Source of the DNA: a virus
Strand: one strand, 5' to 3'
DNA length: 42,237 nt
Virus record (IMG/VR): IMGVR_UViG_3300037467_000907
Location: 1 to 42,237 of that record
Below, in pieces: positions 2,945 to 10,753 of this stretch. The notes beneath the pieces are model-generated. The model did not search any database and was not told the origin of the DNA. It saw only the letters and a list, made by a program, of their open reading frames with translations. A program made the position numbers and the translations under genes. The stretch's first letter is position 1. The number at the start of each line of letters is the position of its first letter.

Positions 2945-5890
2945 ATGGCAACAAACTGGAATGCGGTTTTAGCAAATATTAATAATGCTTCCGATATCCT
3001 GGCAATTCTACGAAAAGTCCTTGGCTTGCTCGATGGTAAAGTAGATTTAACTAAAATCGATGAAATTATTGCCGATATTTCTAATATGCAGACTAATGTG
3101 GATACAGCATTAACTAATGTTAATTCTGCATTATCTGAATTTGATACAGAAGCCCAAGAAGCTATTCAGCAAGTTATCGCTGCGGGTTTAATGGAGGGTT
3201 TTACAACTGAAGCTGAATTACTTGCAACTAGACCTTTAGAACCAAAAAAATATGCTAAAGCTGAAGATACGGATGTTATTTGGTTCTGGAACAAGCCAGA
3301 TGGTTCACCATCAGGCAGTTATTGGACTAGTACCGGATTAAGTGAATATAACCGGGCAATTAACTTTGTAAATGCTAATCCACTATTTAAGCCAATTAAA
3401 ATTGTTGCTGGTGACGATTTTAATAACTTTACAAAGCAAGGTATTTACTACCACTGGGGAGCAAATCTATCGAGTACTCAAGTAGTAAACGGTCCTTTGT
3501 ATGTGGGAGGGAACTTAGCACAAGGTGTTCTTATAGTTTATAACCCTGACTCAGCAGGTGCTAAAAGTTCGGGCCTTACTCATATATTTTATCCTTACAC
3601 AGATGGATACGCTCCTTTCTTCCGTAAGGTATTGCAGTCTAGCGGTAACTTTCCTACAACATGGGATAGTTATGTTCTACAGTCTACGCAGTTCTCAACA
3701 ATGACTGCTCTGACGACAGGTCAAGACGTCTTAGCGCTGCCAGTAGGTCGCTATAACATACCTTTAATAACAATCGGCAACTCATTGCTTAATATGCCGA
3801 CTATGCCATTGAAGTTTGGTAAGGTGGAAGTAGGCTATACAGCAAATAGTGGGTACAAAGAAGTTCGTATTACTCCATACGGGCAGGACAAAGCGTTCTA
3901 TGTAAACAAGCAATATGAATCAGGCGTATGGCATGGCTGGATAACATTTAAAGATGCAGCTACGCTTAAAGCTGAGAATGACTTGCTATACACAGCTAAG
4001 ACTGAGCTAGCATCGGCTATTGCTGGGGCACTAAACAATATATCGCAAGATAAATACTTTGGTAAGCAATTCACTGCAAGTGAACTAACTGGCTCAGTTC
4101 TTTGGAACACTTCCCCTTATGTTGGCTATAACAATAATAGTGGAGCTGGTGGCGTAAACTTTAACTACATCAAAGCAAACATGTGGTGTACTACAGCTGA
4201 GCCTATTCAGTACCGAGTGTATTACGGAGCTAAAGTTCAAACAGACTTTCGCGGCGGATCTGTACTACAGGCTAACGTAAACAGTCCTGACTACTCAGGC
4301 TTATGCAAGAACTTTCCTACTGCTGATTCAGGTGCAGCACAAGAGATACAGCTAGATCAAGTAATTTCCATACCGCCAAACACACCATTTGTTATTGTGT
4401 TTAGATCAGAGACAATTAAGATTATCAATCTCAGATATTTCGGTACTGCTACTGGCAACTTAGAGTCTCGCGGCTTTAACATATCTTCAAGTACTGCTGA
4501 TTGGGGCGCAGCAGGTATATCGGTTACGTCAATACCTAATCCGCCGACTACACCGACAGCGTTTGTCAGCGCTGGCTTTCAGTTACTATTTAAGCTGCTT
4601 AACAGCGGTGGTGGAACTCCACAGCCCACATTTACACCTAAGCTCGTATTGCCGCCTAAAATTTACGCTTTAGAAGGTCTACAAAGTAATATTTTCTTAC
4701 CGCATACAATCGGTATCGATCATACGCTTTATGACTATGACTTTACGTGTACCAAAGGCGCTCATCAGGTTAGTGGCTGGCGCTGGACACCGGCTAGCAC
4801 AGATGCTGCTGGCACATATGCGTTGACGCTAGCGTGTCTTGATAAGCGAACCGGTGACGTTCTAGCAACTGCCTCTACGCAAGTAATTCTTGTTGCCAAA
4901 ACAGCTAACGCAGGTAACACCAAGAAGATACAAGTAATTGGCGATTCACTTGTTGCGGCTGGATCTATTACACAGGGTATCCTAAACAATGCTAGCGCTG
5001 ACTCTATGGCGGTAACGTTGATAGGAACTCGTGGAACTGGGCTAAATAAACATGAAGGTCGCGGCGGATGGACGATTAACGACTATACAACAGCGGGTAG
5101 AACGTACTACTTATTTACAGTTAGTGGTATTACTACAGCGCCAGCTATTAACGCCACTATATATACGTATAACGGCGGTGAGTTCACTATTCAAGAATCA
5201 AATTTGTCTGGCGGTGCGGGTACATTGTTATGTAGCTATACTGGTACTGCGCCTGTTAATGGCTCTACTGGCACTTTGACTAAAAAAGATGCCGCTGCGG
5301 TAGGTGATACCTCTATTTCATTTAGTAATGTGCAATCGCAATCGGGGAATCCCTTCTGGAATGGTACAGCCATTGACTATCAAAACTACTTGACTGTTTA
5401 CGGCCTAACTGCTCCTGATGTTGTAATTATTCAGCTCGGTATCAATGACACTTTTGGCCTAACGTCAGATCAAGCAGTAACTGATTTCTGTGCTACTGCT
5501 TTTCCTAAGTTAGATTTATTGATTAACTCAATACTTGCTGTAAATGCAAATATAAAAGTGGCTGTATGTGCTCCACCTAGTTACGCGAGCCAAGATGCAT
5601 TCGGCAACAACTATCTTAATGGCCAAACGTCACGCCGTGCATGTAAGAATATTACCGCATTCAATGACGCTCTTTTCGCATACTACAAGCCAAAAGAAGC
5701 TAATAGAATTTACACTCTAAGTGGAGGTATTAACGTAGATTCAGCAAATAACTTCCCAGAAGCTTCTGTAGCTGTCAATTCACGTAACACTAAGACTGTA
5801 ATTAAACAAACGAACGGTGTGCATCCTGATACTGGTGGTTATTACGAAGAAGCGGATGCTATTACACCACTCATTAAGCTAATTGCATAA
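2945..5890 (+). CDS. Large tail fibre/tailspike with C-terminal SGNH (GDSL) esterase domain
   Basis: 981 aa with a coiled N-terminal fibre anchor. The C-terminus carries the SGNH blocks: IGDSL (GDS at 4940-4948), GRGGW, LGINDT and NGVHPD. Confidence 0.65.
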   Translation: MATNWNAVLANINNASDILAILRKVLGLLDGKVDLTKIDEIIADISNMQTNVDTALTNVNSALSEFDTEAQEAIQQVIAAGLMEGFTTEAELLATRPLEPKKYAKAEDTDVIWFWNKPDGSPSGSYWTSTGLSEYNRAINFVNANPLFKPIKIVAGDDFNNFTKQGIYYHWGANLSSTQVVNGPLYVGGNLAQGVLIVYNPDSAGAKSSGLTHIFYPYTDGYAPFFRKVLQSSGNFPTTWDSYVLQSTQFSTMTALTTGQDVLALPVGRYNIPLITIGNSLLNMPTMPLKFGKVEVGYTANSGYKEVRITPYGQDKAFYVNKQYESGVWHGWITFKDAATLKAENDLLYTAKTELASAIAGALNNISQDKYFGKQFTASELTGSVLWNTSPYVGYNNNSGAGGVNFNYIKANMWCTTAEPIQYRVYYGAKVQTDFRGGSVLQANVNSPDYSGLCKNFPTADSGAAQEIQLDQVISIPPNTPFVIVFRSETIKIINLRYFGTATGNLESRGFNISSSTADWGAAGISVTSIPNPPTTPTAFVSAGFQLLFKLLNSGGGTPQPTFTPKLVLPPKIYALEGLQSNIFLPHTIGIDHTLYDYDFTCTKGAHQVSGWRWTPASTDAAGTYALTLACLDKRTGDVLATASTQVILVAKTANAGNTKKIQVIGDSLVAAGSITQGILNNASADSMAVTLIGTRGTGLNKHEGRGGWTINDYTTAGRTYYLFTVSGITTAPAINATIYTYNGGEFTIQESNLSGGAGTLLCSYTGTAPVNGSTGTLTKKDAAAVGDTSISFSNVQSQSGNPFWNGTAIDYQNYLTVYGLTAPDVVIIQLGINDTFGLTSDQAVTDFCATAFPKLDLLINSILAVNANIKVAVCAPPSYASQDAFGNNYLNGQTSRRACKNITAFNDALFAYYKPKEANRIYTLSGGINVDSANNFPEASVAVNSRNTKTVIKQTNGVHPDTGGYYEEADAITPLIKLIA

Positions 5891-5953: not shown

Positions 5954-6343
5954 ATGGAACCAGTTTCCACTAGCGGTTTAACAGCATTATTAAAATTTTA
6001 TGGTGCAGCAATTATGGTGACTTTAGCAGTCGCTTTAGTTGCGGCAGTTGTATTAATGACCCGTATGCCACGCTCACCTCAAGAGTGGGCTGTCGGTCTT
6101 ATTTGTACAGTCGTATCAAGTTTAGCAGGTGGCTCATTCATTATTGTGAAGTGGGGTCTTCATGAATGGATTACTGATGTATGGGGGATGATGGCACTTG
6201 GTGGATTCTTCTTCGTTTGCGGTATTCCTGGTTGGGCTTTAGTACGGTGGACATTTAATTTTATCAATAAGCAGGAAGGTAAAACGATTATTGAAGTAAT
6301 CAAAGAAGTTAAGAAAGCCAGAAGTGATATCGAAAACAGTTAA
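5954..6343 (+). CDS. Holin (three predicted TM segments, charged C-terminus)
   Basis: 129 aa with hydrophobic stretches AAIMVTLAVALVAAVVLM, GLICTVVSSLAGGSFIIV and MMALGGFFFVCGIPGWALV, then a K/E-rich tail. Lies immediately upstream of the endolysin. Confidence 0.6.
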   Translation: MEPVSTSGLTALLKFYGAAIMVTLAVALVAAVVLMTRMPRSPQEWAVGLICTVVSSLAGGSFIIVKWGLHEWITDVWGMMALGGFFFVCGIPGWALVRWTFNFINKQEGKTIIEVIKEVKKARSDIENS

Positions 6344-6963: not shown

Positions 6964-7058
6964 AAGCTTTAATATTGCTGTGCATTCTATTATCAGGATG
7001 CACAGCCCACACGATCAATAACAATGTGAGTGTCGGCATTTGTGTAAAAGCCCTCTAA
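6960..7058 (+). CDS. 32-aa lipoprotein ORF coupled to the endolysin stop (possible minimal spanin-like lysis accessory)
   Basis: ATGA overlap with the endolysin stop. Sequence MKALILLCILLSGCTAHTINNNVSVGICVKAL has lipobox LLSGC. Below the 60-aa ORF-track cutoff. Confidence 0.4.
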   Translation: MKALILLCILLSGCTAHTINNNVSVGICVKAL

Positions 7059-7067
7059 GGAGGGCTT
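7048..7067. terminator. Bidirectional terminator between the late operon and the convergent moron
   Basis: Perfect 8-bp stem AAGCCCTC/GAGGGCTT with TAAG loop, T-rich on both sides. Lies between convergent genes. Confidence 0.7.
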
Positions 7068-7076
7068 ATTTATGTA

Positions 7077-7709
7077 TTATTTAAGTTTGTGACACCACTT
7101 AGCTTTTTTCCCACTTCCACAGATACATGGATCATAGTTCGTAAGAGGTTTAATTAGTCGACTTATTTCTATTCCCAACATACACAAAGCATGCGTTATA
7201 TTTTCATATTCTATATGCTCATCAGGATCTGTTAAATGTACTTCACCATGCATTCCTTTTCTGTTACCTCTATTTTTAAACTCATATTCATAGTCTTTAA
7301 CTTTTAAAAAATCATGTACGTTCTTATTATTAGTTAAAGGTAGGCGGATATTATTTCTCTGATATCCTTCATAAAGTAAATCTGGTTGAGGTAAAAATAA
7401 GATATTTTCGGTCGTATGAGGACGATAGTTTAAATCCAAATAATTACCTTCTGGTGATTTCCATATAGCATGAAATTCAGCTTCAATATAAAGACCAGGT
7501 TGTTCCCAAAGTGACCATCCATTAATTCTTTCTCCTCCATGATCTTGAACGTATTGATCAACTAAGGGAAAGCACTCATTCTCAATCCCTAATAGGTTTG
7601 GCTGGCATCTAACATAAAATGGCATTGACTCAGAATCTATTTTTTTCAATAAAGCCTTTACAGATTCGCCTTCTAGGCAAGGTGTAAGTGGAACTAAAGG
7701 TTTTGTCAT
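7077..7709 (-). CDS. SEC-C zinc-motif protein of unknown function
   Basis: 210 aa. C-terminus CICGSGKKAKWCH closely matches the SecA C-terminal SEC-C metal-binding motif. The N-terminal ~190 aa is unrecognised. A TATAAT hexamer lies upstream on the minus strand (7744-7749). Confidence 0.6.
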   Translation of the reverse strand: MTKPLVPLTPCLEGESVKALLKKIDSESMPFYVRCQPNLLGIENECFPLVDQYVQDHGGERINGWSLWEQPGLYIEAEFHAIWKSPEGNYLDLNYRPHTTENILFLPQPDLLYEGYQRNNIRLPLTNNKNVHDFLKVKDYEYEFKNRGNRKGMHGEVHLTDPDEHIEYENITHALCMLGIEISRLIKPLTNYDPCICGSGKKAKWCHKLK

Positions 7710-7757
7710 AAAATCCCTATTACTAATATTTATGTTTCACCATATTATAAAATGTTT

Positions 7758-8579
7758 TTATTGCCTTTCCATTTCTGTGACTTTTAAGTGTTCTATGCAA
7801 TAGTCTCGTATTTCATCGTGAAGTTTAATAGTCTCATTTAACCATGTTTCGTAAGTGGTATTCTGGGGTTTGTTATCTATAATCGCTACCAGTTCATCCT
7901 TTTCGAAGAATCTTAAAATTTCTGCAATTTCAATACGTAGTGAATCTTTTCTATTTTCACTATAGGGTCTATAAATATCATAATTACGTTTTGAATTAGA
8001 CGAACCCGCTTTGATGATTGAGTTTACCTCTTCTGTTAAGTCATAGTATCTTTGATACTTTTTAAAGAAAAGATCACGATAAAAATCATCCATAATAAAA
8101 CAATGTTTATCAAAAGAATGGTAGAGGTTAATTAACGTATCATCCTTTTTAATCTCGCTATAGATCTTTATATTGGGGAAAAGACTAATTATGGATTTAT
8201 AAATATCAATTCTTTCTCTTTCTAAATAATCTGTTTTAATAATTAAAAATTTATCAATTTTTTTGAGGTTGTGAGAGTCCGATCTAATTTTATGTAATTC
8301 AACATATATGAGTTTTAGGTCGATTAAAATGTTTGTTAATATGGAATTTTCTAAGTCATAATTTTTTTCATCTCTCCAATCATTAAACAAATAAGCAGCT
8401 ACAGCAGCTGCACCTAAAGTCCCGATAACACCAAAGAGGCTTCCTGTGGTCGATAGACTATCTTGTACAGCTTTAAAATCGCCCCAATAGAAGTATAAAA
8501 TTCCAAAAATACTAAAAAGAAGAAATGCTAAAATTAAGCCTATAATCAAAATACTTATGGAAAATGTATTTTTATTCAT
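7758..8579 (-). CDS. 2TM membrane protein with ~205-aa K/D/E/Y-rich helical cytoplasmic domain, unknown function
   Basis: 273 aa. TM1 is SISILIIGLILAFLLFSIFGILYFY and TM2 is GSLFGVIGTLGAAAVAAYLF. Very AT-rich codon usage. Confidence 0.6.
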   Translation of the reverse strand: MNKNTFSISILIIGLILAFLLFSIFGILYFYWGDFKAVQDSLSTTGSLFGVIGTLGAAAVAAYLFNDWRDEKNYDLENSILTNILIDLKLIYVELHKIRSDSHNLKKIDKFLIIKTDYLERERIDIYKSIISLFPNIKIYSEIKKDDTLINLYHSFDKHCFIMDDFYRDLFFKKYQRYYDLTEEVNSIIKAGSSNSKRNYDIYRPYSENRKDSLRIEIAEILRFFEKDELVAIIDNKPQNTTYETWLNETIKLHDEIRDYCIEHLKVTEMERQ

Positions 8580-8800
8580 TAATCACCAACCGTACCCAAA
8601 ACAGGAATCATTTGTGGCCCAGTCATCCGAGCCTTACTGATAATTTCAACAAGTTCATCATAAGTTAAATTAAAAGAATCTTCACTATCAAAAACATAGA
8701 CCATATTTTTCCCTTCATATTCTAGTGGGGTAGGTGGGACGAAGCGCTTAGGGATAAGTGTTTGTGTTAATTGTTCGTCTGTTAGTCGTGTAAAGTTCAT
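8579..8800 (-). CDS. 73-aa acidic protein, translationally coupled to the 2TM gene
   Basis: TAATG stop/start overlap at 8579. GAGGA SD 8 nt upstream of the ATG at 8800. Confidence 0.5.
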   Translation of the reverse strand: MNFTRLTDEQLTQTLIPKRFVPPTPLEYEGKNMVYVFDSEDSFNLTYDELVEIISKARMTGPQMIPVLGTVGD

Positions 8801-8823
8801 ACTACATTCCTCTTTAATGAATT

Positions 8824-8843
8824 AATTGAGCAAATATTTGCTC
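8824..8843. promoter_or_regulatory. Operator-like element containing the perfect 16-bp palindrome GAGCAAATATTTGCTC
   Basis: Palindrome at 8828-8843, about 30 bp upstream of the 73-aa gene. Copy 1 of the 20-nt direct repeat AATTGAGCAAATATTT(G/T)CTC. Confidence 0.5.
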
Positions 8844-8864
8844 GAAAACAATAAAAATAATTAA

Positions 8865-8884
8865 AATTGAGCAAATATTTTCTC
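8865..8884. promoter_or_regulatory. Second copy of the element (GAGCAAATATTTTCTC, one mismatch), overlapping the umuC stop
   Basis: Lies 41 bp from copy 1. On the minus strand it is followed by a T-rich tract, so it could also be a weak umuC terminator. Confidence 0.4.
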
Positions 8885-10187
8885 ATTTTGTTATCAATGG
8901 CAGCTCATCCCACCGAAACGGATTTCTACTCAATTTATCTCTCGACATTGACCAATTCCGACCAGGAACAAAACATGGACCGACACCTATTTTTTTCTTT
9001 CCAAATTTACTATGGATACCATCCATAGCCTTCATTAAACATTCCTTTTTCTCTATGTGTGCAAAATCAGTAAGCAGGTCATATGTATGGCCAGACTTTG
9101 GCTCCAGACATGTAAGTATTACGCCACATTTTTTATATTTAATTCCTCCTTTATAAATTTCGTTCAACATCCTTGTAGCCGCTTTAACAAAATCAATTGC
9201 GCAGTCAGTGGGTTCTGAAAAAGAGCCTGTAATAGATTTATTGTAAAATGGCACATTGGGGTCGAAAGGGTTTGACTGTACAAAAGCAATCATACAACCG
9301 CATAACAACTCTTCATCTCTCAAGCGTTTACACGCATCTTGAGCATACATCGAGATAGCTTCTTTTAGATCCGTTAGTTCGGTTACACGACCACCGAAAG
9401 ACCTGCTTGCAACAATTTGTTTTTTAGAAGGGGGAGTGTGCTCGATCTCGATGCATGAGATACCCTGAAGCTCATAGATTGTTCTTGCCATCACAATTGA
9501 AAATTTCTTTTGCATCTCTCGAGGTTCAGCACAAGCTAAATCAAGCACCGTATTAATACTCATACCTTGCAGCTTTTTAGTGTGCTTACGGCCAACACCC
9601 CAAACTTCTGAAACATCGATATTCCCAAAGTAATATTCTTTGTTGCACGGATCCATATTTACGAGATCGCATACACTGTTAAAACCCGCATTCTTTTTAG
9701 CAATATGATTCGCAATCTTCGATTCTGTTTTGCTTCTACCGATACCAACGCACACTGGTAAACCAAGCCATTTCCATATTTGCTGGCGCATCTCTTGGCC
9801 AACTTTTTCTAAATCAAAGTTCTTCTCATAAGCTGTGAAATCAACAAAGCACTCATCAATCGAGTATGACTCAACTTCTTCATCTGTTACGTATGAACTA
9901 AGGATCTTATGAAATCGCCGTGACATTTCTGCATACATTGCATAATTGCTTGAAAGTACGATTACCTTATTTTGCTGAACAATTTCTTTGATCTGGAATA
10001 GAGGAACGCCCATTTTAATGCCTAATGCTTTTGATTCATTGCTGCGAGCAACGGCACATCCGTCATTATTGCTGAGCACAATAACGGGCTTATCATTCAA
10101 AGATGGATCAAAGACTCTCTCACATGAAACGTACATGTTATTTACATCGATGAGAAAGAAGACTTTGTTCTCATGTTTCATGATCAT
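8883..10187 (-). CDS. umuC: UmuC-like Y-family translesion DNA polymerase subunit
   Basis: N-terminus [51 protein letters not shown] parallels E. coli UmuC. The start was set at the ATG forming an ATGA overlap with the umuD stop. Confidence 0.9.
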
Positions 10188-10675
10188 TTTCTTGTATTTT
10201 TTAGAATATAAGTAACAACACCCCAAATTATTAACTCTTGGCCATCCGACAAATAAATATTTTTATATTCAGGATTTTCTGCCTTGAGCCATTTTCTCTC
10301 ATCAATCATTAAGCGCTTAACAGTGAAGTCATTATCAATAAGAGCAACAACAATATCGTTGTGTTTCGCTTCAAGGCTACGATCTACAACAAGCTCGTCA
10401 TCAATATCAATACCTGCATTCAGCATTGAAAGGGAAGCAACTTTGACAATGAAGGTTGCAGTTTCATTTTTTATTAGGTGCTCATTCATATCGAGAGCTT
10501 TGTCGATGTAATCTTGTGCTGGGCTGGGAAAACCTGCTGAAATCTTCTCTAGAGCATAGGGGACAAGCATGTGAGTGGTTGGTATAACTTGCTTGATTGA
10601 TAAGGCTTCAGATAAAACAATACTACTTTGTAAATATGGTTTTATCTGGATGATGGATGGTGCAATTTCGCTCAT
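10184..10675 (-). CDS. umuD: UmuD-like S24 self-cleaving protein
   Basis: [11 protein letters not shown] cleavage region (Ala-Gly), SLSM serine motif and FTVKRL lysine motif. Start placed at MSEIAP with an AAGGGG SD 6 nt upstream. The longer TTG-start ORF would run through the operator. Confidence 0.85.
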
Positions 10676-10712: not shown

Positions 10713-10742
10713 ATGATATGCTAGAGCTTAGTTGAATTTCAA
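10713..10742 (-). promoter_or_regulatory. Candidate umuDC promoter (TTGAAA - 18 bp - TATCAT)
   Basis: Minus-strand hexamers at 10742-10737 and 10718-10713. The -35 sits in a TTGAAtTTCAA mini-palindrome (10732-10742). Confidence 0.45.
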
Positions 10743-10753
10743 ATTTAAAAACC

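Follow-up and report, generated by a model that had tools for sequence, protein, structure and literature searches.

A putative umuDC operon tail of three separable genes in a temperate Acinetobacter phage

What do three minus-strand genes do that lie between umuDC and the late/lysis genes of a temperate Acinetobacter phage? The question is raised by the IMG/VR virus record IMGVR_UViG_3300037467_000907, which was analyzed over its whole length (42,237 nucleotides, referred to below as the window). The window is a circularly permuted phage genome of ~42 kb that carries genes for an integrase, a CI-like repressor, a SRAP protein, UmuD, UmuC, a GH19 endolysin and structural proteins. The three open reading frames (ORFs) encode a protein of 73 amino acids (aa), named small73 here, a 273-aa two-transmembrane (2TM) protein and a 210-aa protein ending in a SEC-C-type zinc motif (SEC-C protein). 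A previous reading of the window made from its letters (the sequence-only reading) proposed that the block is an isolated module and a candidate for one exclusion/defence or lysogenic-conversion system. We read the three ORFs, with moderate confidence, as the 3' tail of the prophage umuD-umuC unit, lying in the UmuDAb/DdrR regulon of the host and made up of three separable modules rather than one autonomous system.

The umuD and umuC genes were found immediately upstream of the three genes on the same minus strand (Table 1), and terminator prediction gave no site in the interval that separates umuC from the 73-aa gene. The umuC ORF opens at a TTG (10226), and its start is probably the ATG at 10181 (MKHENKV). 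The isolation claimed for the block was therefore not borne out, and the opposite orientation ascribed to it is correct relative to the late/lysis genes but not relative to umuDC. The sequence-only reading missed that the block continues the umuDC operon, that this operon has a perfect UmuDAb operator and that the 73-aa gene is primarily a partner of umuC. The operator, TTGAATTTGTAACATATTCAA, sits between the -10 hexamer of the umuD promoter and the ribosome-binding site and ATG of umuD, and matches without mismatch the published consensus TTGA-N4-GTnAC-N4-TCAA (PMC11332147). It is the only zero-mismatch UmuDAb match in the window, and an operator of the UmuDAb/DdrR regulon is thus present at the promoter of the transcription unit. 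The exact box was also present once, on the gene strand and just upstream of umuD, in 61 related loci that were fetched. Judged from this layout, all three genes appear to be positioned for expression from the UmuDAb-controlled promoter.

An A/T-rich inverted repeat, TTTAAATTTGAAATTCAA, overlaps the -35 hexamer of the umuD promoter. Judged by eye only, it resembles the EppR binding oligo listed in Table 2 of PMC12242105, a paper that also reports an EppR site at ~20 bp from the UmuDAb box in umuDC promoters. Because of this resemblance, binding sites for the two host repressors, UmuDAb and EppR, may both be present in the umuDC promoter of the phage. In A. baumannii 17978 two newly annotated hypothetical genes, whose role was called 'unexplored' by the Hare laboratory, trail both umuDC operons; DNA damage induces them in the wild type, whereas ddrR or umuDAb mutants show no such induction (PMC10808703). 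The 17978 genes probably belong to the families seen here.

Several elements described in the sequence-only reading were found as described: the three minus-strand ORFs, the hairpin at 7048-7067, the duplicated palindrome, the acidity of the 73-aa protein (isoelectric point 4.45), two N-terminal hydrophobic segments in the 273-aa protein (residues ~4-66) and the C-terminal SEC-C-type motif of the 210-aa protein. The stop codon of the 73-aa gene and the start codon of the 273-aa gene overlap by one base (TAATG), and 48 nt that hold TGGAAA-16-TATAAT separate the 273-aa from the 210-aa ORF. The -10-like hexamer at the equivalent position is TATACT in one related locus (L013) and TATAGT in another (L056), which is weak evidence in so AT-rich a region. 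The hairpin is probably a bidirectional terminator common to the convergent late/lysis operon and the umuDC-tail unit. The AT-richness attributed to the block applies to the 2TM and SEC-C genes (guanine-plus-cytosine (GC) content of 29.0% and 33.5%, respectively, against 39.8% for the window), but the small73 gene (37.4%) matches umuC (38.5%; umuDC 36-38%). Comparison with orthologues revealed purifying selection on all three ORFs, with ratios of nonsynonymous to synonymous substitution (dN/dS) of 0.02-0.39, and all three are therefore genuine genes. The location in a moron slot next to lysis genes was also supported, and none of the three proteins matched a virion, lysis, replication or regulatory family in the profile libraries. 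Among deposited phages, a megablast search with the region found nothing, and tblastn returned one weak match to the SEC-C protein and none to small73 or 2TM.

Table 1. Coordinates of the umuDC unit, its tail genes and associated sequence elements in the window
Feature	Position	Strand	Basis or remark
GC-rich hairpin, 8 bp, loop 4	7048..7067		terminator prediction
SEC-C protein ORF, 210 aa	7077..7709	minus	ORF list
Promoter-like TGGAAA-16-TATAAT	7744..7771	minus	48-nt gap before SEC-C gene; promoter scan
2TM protein ORF, 273 aa	7758..8579	minus	ORF list
small73 ORF, 73 aa	8579..8800	minus	ORF list
Palindrome (AATT)GAGCAAATATTTGCTC, two copies	8824-8843 and 8865-8884		41 nt start to start
umuC, Y-family polymerase	8883..10226	minus	Pfam IMS, IMS_C, DUF4113
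umuD, S24 peptidase, 163 aa from ATG at 10675	10184..10675	minus	Pfam Peptidase_S24, E = 6.6e-25
UmuDAb operator TTGAATTTGTAACATATTCAA	10691..10711		0 mismatches to TTGA-N4-GTnAC-N4-TCAA
umuD promoter, sigma70-like TTGAAA-18-TATCAT	10742..10713 (region 10713..10749)	minus	promoter scan
A/T-rich inverted repeat TTTAAATTTGAAATTCAA	10749-10732	minus	overlaps umuD -35 hexamer, ~20 bp upstream of UmuDAb box

The double palindrome between umuC and the small73 gene is the main uncertainty for co-transcription. Its second copy overlaps the umuC stop codon, and a search of the window with GAGCAAATATTTGCTC returned three matches at up to 3 mismatches, two of them being these copies, where 0.02 were expected by chance. 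Both copies are kept in the close UmuC lineage (L094-98, near 4737-4752, and L040), while the intervening spacer is divergent. Folded as RNA, they would pair into one long hairpin of -18.4 kcal/mol. A terminator was rejected on account of the missing U-tract and a fold z-score of only -2.07. A known operator was likewise rejected, as the palindrome matched none of the published UmuDAb, EppR or DdaA motifs. The two copies may serve as paired operators, as an attenuator or in the processing or stability of the RNA.

To follow the distribution of the three genes, each of them served as the anchor of searches that covered IMG/VR viral contigs, plasmids and a single genome from each species. Homologues of small73 formed 297 clusters with 75-96% identity; their sources were exclusively Acinetobacter or metagenome bins that probably belong to this genus, and an exhaustive profile search of 1.84 billion representatives returned only 41 small73 clusters, mostly fragments. 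The gene lies ~10 nt 3' of umuC in most species, and 4-10 nt from it across prophage, plasmid and chromosomal contexts. The small73 protein was ~80% identical where the adjacent UmuC was only ~48% identical, its dN/dS was 0.02-0.04 at a synonymous divergence (dS) of ~0.65, and its sequence was unchanged by the presence or absence of the 2TM gene. On these comparisons, the small73 gene appears to be a conserved, genus-specific third gene of Acinetobacter umuDC operons and primarily a umuC partner. In an A. pittii prophage that has the full trio (L013-L018, 5780-5968) an early stop cuts the 73-aa gene to 62 aa, and the 2TM and SEC-C genes are intact.

The small73 gene was found on 100 plasmids, all of them from Acinetobacter, as the last gene, after a 4-nt gap, of a module consisting of SRAP, umuD, umuC and the small73 gene. 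The A. pittii plasmid pOXA58_005046 (NZ_CP028573.2; L275, 954-8732) carries genes for ImmA/IrrE, SRAP, an S24 peptidase (UmuD), a Y-family polymerase and the 73-aa protein, and this module converges on the gene of a 1066-aa site-specific integrase. Because the arrangement recurs in many Acinetobacter species, it represents a mobile element with a four-gene damage-tolerance unit. One protein of the representative library (P0228, 115 aa) has the C-terminal DUF4113 of UmuC fused in frame to small73 from residue 15 onward. The fusion was seen in one cluster only, which may be a fragment or an artefact of sequencing, and provides a possible Rosetta-stone link between UmuC and small73.

Pfam, NCBIfam and PADLOC contained no informative family for small73, PDB sequence profiles gave no match, and the profile libraries yielded no informative family for its distant relatives either. 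The AlphaFold2 model showed two short helices only, with a predicted local distance difference test (pLDDT) of 52, and was too poor for a fold search; such low confidence is consistent with a small protein that acquires its fold on binding a partner. In the segment FDSEDSFNLTYDEL the residues D38, E40, S42 and E49 would fit positions 1, 3, 5 and 12 of an EF-hand-like loop, and the family profile retrieved true EF-hand repeat proteins among the 1.84 billion representatives. We propose that small73 would be an accessory protein of the polymerase V (pol V) operon, most likely binding UmuC or another mutasome component and folding on that partner. By its role it would be a functional analogue, not a homologue, of small SOS modulators such as DinI and ImpC.

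The 2TM protein is built differently. Its anchor, residues 1 to ~72, consists of two hydrophobic helices with invariant residues T54, L55, A58, A61 and L64-F-N-D-W68, and homologues diverge completely past W68. The protein of the window carries a 205-aa C-terminal domain, designated C0. The 64 unique 2TM proteins of the sampled loci grouped into 11 clusters by anchor and 33 by C-domain. The main anchor cluster was joined to at least 19 types of C-domain, and seven C-domain types were shared by two or more anchor lineages. When the profiles of the nine largest C-domain clusters were compared with one another, no homology was detected in 34 of the 36 pairs, the other two aligning over 24-39 residues only. 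The C-terminal domains are probably cytoplasmic, judging from the positive-inside rule only. All 14 variants scanned matched phrog_17209, a family with no assigned function, and PADLOC gave two isolated weak single-member matches for them; the profile libraries held no informative family for these 14 or for 10 further variants. The name DUF4760, attached to one homologue in UniRef, was rejected since no Pfam match supports it.

Several lineages with different C-domains retain the stop/start overlap of the small73 and 2TM genes. In a second anchor lineage (MRLNKDNVVN...SLFNDWK), which has no small73 gene, the 2TM gene begins 17-18 nt past the umuC stop. Between the window and its closest relative (L114) dS was 0.70 for small73, 0.29 for the 2TM anchor and 0.07 for the 2TM C-domain and the SEC-C gene, which places a recombination junction at the 2TM anchor or close to it. 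In the A. baumannii chromosome (L090-L093, ~4787-5678) a gene for a 225-aa 2TM variant, preceded by a degenerate, uncalled remnant of the 73-aa gene, adjoins a PAAR-motif gene and is followed by an uncharacterized 203-aa ORF, away from umuDC and prophage genes. We suggest that the 2TM protein represents a single allele within a polymorphic family of the inner membrane, in which a conserved two-helix anchor carries one of many unrelated domains. Because it is a prophage-encoded membrane anchor with interchangeable soluble domains, the family would most likely confer specificity in exclusion or defence, being produced once DNA damage announces that neighbouring prophages are being induced.

The SEC-C protein consists of an N-terminal domain (N-domain) of ~175 aa and a putative C-terminal SecA-type zinc knuckle (C195, C197, C206, H207). 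The knuckle motif, CICGSGKKAKWCH, matched Pfam SEC-C (PF02810) with E = 0.004 and 17.5 bits, though this lies under the 20.4-bit cut-off. The family profile retrieved the SecA and YchJ metal-binding domains of the PDB (E = 1e-5; SecA 1.3e-5), and several homologues bear a precomputed PF02810 annotation. The name YecA/YchJ, given by NCBI to some homologues, was rejected since the NCBIfam match covers residues 190-207 only and scores 12-17 bits against cut-offs of 120-158. In PADLOC-DB v2 the SEC-C protein gave weak 'E2' matches restricted to the zinc-knuckle tail (E = 0.001-0.025).

Alignments across phyla revealed invariant positions in the N-domain (C46, G58-G59, G64-W65, E76-A-E-F-H80, D92, F105, N120 and R122) in addition to the CxC...C(H/C) knuckle. 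The AlphaFold2 model had a pLDDT of 89.7 and a predicted template modelling score of 0.86. In this model C46 starts helix 46-57, and H80 (strand 74-84) and D92 (strand 90-92) lie in adjacent strands, an arrangement like that of papain and transglutaminase folds, where the Cys opens a helix and neighbouring strands carry the His and the Asp. In the predicted structure C46, H80 and D92 look like a Cys-His-Asp catalytic set. Foldseek found no structural neighbour of the SEC-C protein model in the PDB, and PDB sequence profiles matched the zinc knuckle only. In BFVD the best Foldseek matches were uncharacterized phage proteins, and the top one, 'GIY-YIG_COG3680' (TMq 0.40), is not interpretable.

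Homologues of 179-181 aa, with every invariant residue of the N-domain and no knuckle, occurred on P2-like phage contigs next to portal gpQ, terminase and GPO genes, ten of the loci having an XRE-type helix-turn-helix gene upstream (for example L264, 4056-5423, and L253, 4132-5540). The gpA-gpQ interval is an experimentally validated anti-phage hotspot of P2-like phages (PMC9122126). In a Xanthomonas plasmid the SEC-C gene stands in an accessory region whose other genes encode an AAA ATPase, a NYN-domain protein and an AbiEii toxin. No partner of the SEC-C gene was conserved across phyla, except within sets of related phages. A role of the SEC-C protein in phage conflict thus has circumstantial support only, from its genomic settings. 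We suggest that it would be an independently mobile, enzyme-like moron with an optional zinc-knuckle tail and possibly its own promoter, probably serving phage-phage or phage-host conflict.

How far the three genes travel together was determined from the anchored searches. Among the 80 best small73 viral loci, umuC stood upstream on the same strand in 55, a 2TM N-terminus downstream in ~27 and a SEC-C gene in five; the full order umuC, small73, 2TM, SEC-C was seen in two. The full trio was equally rare when the search started from the other genes (2/55 2TM and 2/33 SEC-C viral loci). The 2TM gene followed a co-directional umuC in 37 of its 55 viral loci, and in 16-17 of these it came directly after umuC, with no small73 gene. 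Neither of the other two genes was present within 5 kb in 28 of the 33 SEC-C viral loci, and both were absent from all 33 SEC-C loci in genomes other than Acinetobacter, which span Gemmatimonadota, Clostridia, Bacteroidota, Patescibacteria and a Nanoarchaeote. The SEC-C gene was found on 23 plasmids, from Xanthomonas, Agrobacterium and other genera, and the 2TM gene on essentially none. A specific pairing of C0-type 2TM with SEC-C was rejected, since the two occurred together in four lineages and C0-type 2TM occurred without SEC-C in three that had at least 4 kb of downstream sequence.

These counts bear directly on the proposal that the block is one autonomous abortive-infection or superinfection-exclusion system, in which a small regulator, a membrane effector and a zinc-motif sensor are expressed independently of umuDC. 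The complete order after umuDC does recur in A. pittii prophages, in Acinetobacter sp. ANC 3929 and in one IMG/VR contig; A. radioresistens has all three families around umuDC in a different order (int, 2TM-like, umuDC, small73, SEC-C), and A. baumannii has SEC-C ~450 nt from a small73-2TM pair without umuDC. The equally low dS of the 2TM C-domain and SEC-C suggests that these two moved together in the L114 lineage. However, co-occurrence elsewhere, on which the sequence-only reading had itself staked the idea, proved not to be obligate: the trio is rare from whichever gene it is sought, each gene is widespread alone, small73 stands alone on the 100 plasmids and in most species, C0-type 2TM does without SEC-C in three lineages and PADLOC gave no hits. 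We consider a single autonomous system very improbable. The recurrence of the three families in varied orders, including umuDC, small73, SEC-C in A. guillouiae, would fit a shared cargo slot rather than an obligate system. A DNA-damage effector pair of small73 and 2TM acting on the host cell and not against other phages, as a membrane-anchored division inhibitor, a lysis-timing regulator or a toxin-antitoxin-like pair, is hardly more convincing, and we regard it as quite improbable. Its appeal lies in the conserved stop/start overlap with different C-domains, in the adjacent locus tags of the two genes in four further genomes and in the DNA-damage control that the UmuDAb box implies. Other bacteria have SOS-induced small membrane division inhibitors (YneA, SidA, SosA), and Acinetobacter is not known to have SulA. 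The pairing is nevertheless not obligate, as small73 is alone in most loci and a whole 2TM lineage does without it; the sequence of small73 is indifferent to 2TM, and as many unrelated C-domains as were seen, at least 33, would hardly be expected if the host target were conserved. A type II-like toxin-antitoxin pair was rejected on the same failure of obligate co-occurrence.

A pure cargo slot, recombination-permissive, in which 2TM and SEC-C are unrelated passengers with their own promoters, constitutive in the lysogen, and in which the position after umuDC means nothing, is rather unlikely. Several observations speak for it: the GC content of both genes lies well under that of umuDC, a promoter-like TATAAT precedes SEC-C, the conserved palindromes could insulate the tail, the dS values are mosaic and SEC-C sits in unrelated slots of other phages and plasmids. 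Against it, the 2TM gene starts so soon after the umuC stop, or overlaps the small73 stop, that there is no room for a promoter and translational coupling is implied; most 2TM loci are co-directional with an upstream umuC, the family is virtually absent elsewhere, plasmids included, and genes trailing umuDC were reported to be controlled by UmuDAb/DdrR (PMC10808703). A more specific form of the umuDC linkage, which we put forward only tentatively and consider rather unlikely, would make the 3' end of umuDC a damage-triggered immunity locus, with small73 as a mutasome subunit or regulator and the polymorphic 2TM protein and the Cys-His-Asp enzyme domain as exclusion or defence factors, switched on at the very time at which competing prophages of neighbouring cells are induced by DNA damage. 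Our best reading of the locus remains a DNA-damage-induced operon tail that would combine a pol V accessory protein with swappable phage-competition cargo.

Several results weigh against the operon-tail reading. We infer co-transcription with umuDC from the layout alone, and the palindromes, as a terminator, an attenuator or a separate operator, might uncouple the tail from umuDC. The 17978 genes KZA74_12655 and KZA74_07745 could not be linked to the 73-aa family via cluster member names, and many umuDC-small73 loci are copies of one mobile element and so not independent. Pfam EF-hand did not match small73 at E <= 1, and the model of small73 (pLDDT 52) shows the exiting helix only and no helix-loop-helix. 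The papain/transglutaminase fold was dropped for the SEC-C protein since a Foldseek search of the PDB reached no better than E = 0.08, with TM <= 0.16 and no peptidase among the matches. Within the C0 type of 2TM dN/dS was 0.16-0.22, with no sign of positive selection, and the hypervariable C-domains could stem from relaxed constraint or recombination instead of an arms race. An exclusion or defence role, as proposed in the sequence-only reading, stays plausible for 2TM with its variable C-domains and for SEC-C with its P2 hotspot homologues, but PADLOC matched no model, and PADLOC-DB v2 gave no hits for the 73-aa and 273-aa proteins.

Comparison with known systems places each gene near, and apart from, familiar ones. 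DinI and ImpC (impCAB operon of plasmid TP110) are small SOS-operon accessory proteins. Small73 is like them in being acidic, in its size of ~70-80 aa and in lying inside, and presumably being co-regulated with, a umuDC-type polymerase operon on mobile elements. It differs in that it has no Pfam DinI match at E <= 1, its gene is downstream of umuC and not upstream of umuD, its family is restricted to Acinetobacter, and its fusion to UmuC, in one cluster, points to UmuC rather than RecA as the partner. DdrR, an Acinetobacter-specific co-repressor of the UmuDAb regulon (PMC11332147, PMC7273328), is also small, genus-restricted and tied to a UmuDAb-controlled polymerase regulon. It is set apart by gene position, being encoded divergently from umuDAb whereas small73 follows umuC, and the genes after umuDC are listed separately as 'hypothetical genes' in PMC10808703.

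The locus also resembles prophage superinfection-exclusion (Sie) membrane proteins and variable anti-phage hotspots such as the old/tin locus of P2 (PMC9122126). It too is an accessory slot of a prophage in which alleles turn over at a high rate and which encodes membrane-anchored proteins with variable soluble domains, and the gpA-gpQ hotspot of P2 contains relatives of the SEC-C N-domain. Unlike these, the slot described here is the putative tail of a umuDC operon under UmuDAb control and not cos- or att-proximal, and there is no homology to PADLOC models. With SecA, YecA (UPF0149) and YchJ the SEC-C protein appears to share the C-terminal CxCxSGxKxKxCH zinc knuckle (PF02810), but the similarity is confined to the final ~20 residues; the 175 aa before the tail bear no relation to these proteins, and the P2-phage homologues have no knuckle.

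Two further genes of the window were also noted. Positions 2945-5890 encode a 981-aa tail fibre or spike protein with a weak C-terminal match to GDSL/SGNH esterases (E = 1.6e-4, under the Pfam cut-off). The 129-aa ORF at 5954-6343, which had no Pfam match, may encode a holin, judging from its position directly before the GH19 endolysin gene.

Error-prone pol V drives damage-induced antibiotic resistance in Acinetobacter baumannii, and is regulated there in an unusual way, by UmuDAb, DdrR and EppR and without LexA. Because small73 is tightly constrained, genus-wide, adjacent to umuC and once found fused to UmuC, it is an obvious candidate for a pol V accessory factor. In the searched passages on recent biochemical reconstitutions of A. 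baumannii pol V it is neither mentioned nor included (PMC13062779). If the 2TM family is a defence module, anti-phage immunity would be wired to the DNA-damage regulon through a mutagenesis operon, complementary to the link between damage and defence through DdaA that was reported for Moraxellaceae (PMC12392091). The N-domain of the SEC-C protein is conserved across phyla, absent from Pfam and without a solved structural relative, and its recurrence in phage accessory hotspots makes it a reasonable subject for functional screening. The principal outcome is threefold: a small umuC partner that is genus-wide and strongly constrained, a polymorphic family of membrane proteins linked to umuC, and a new, conserved domain with enzyme-like features.

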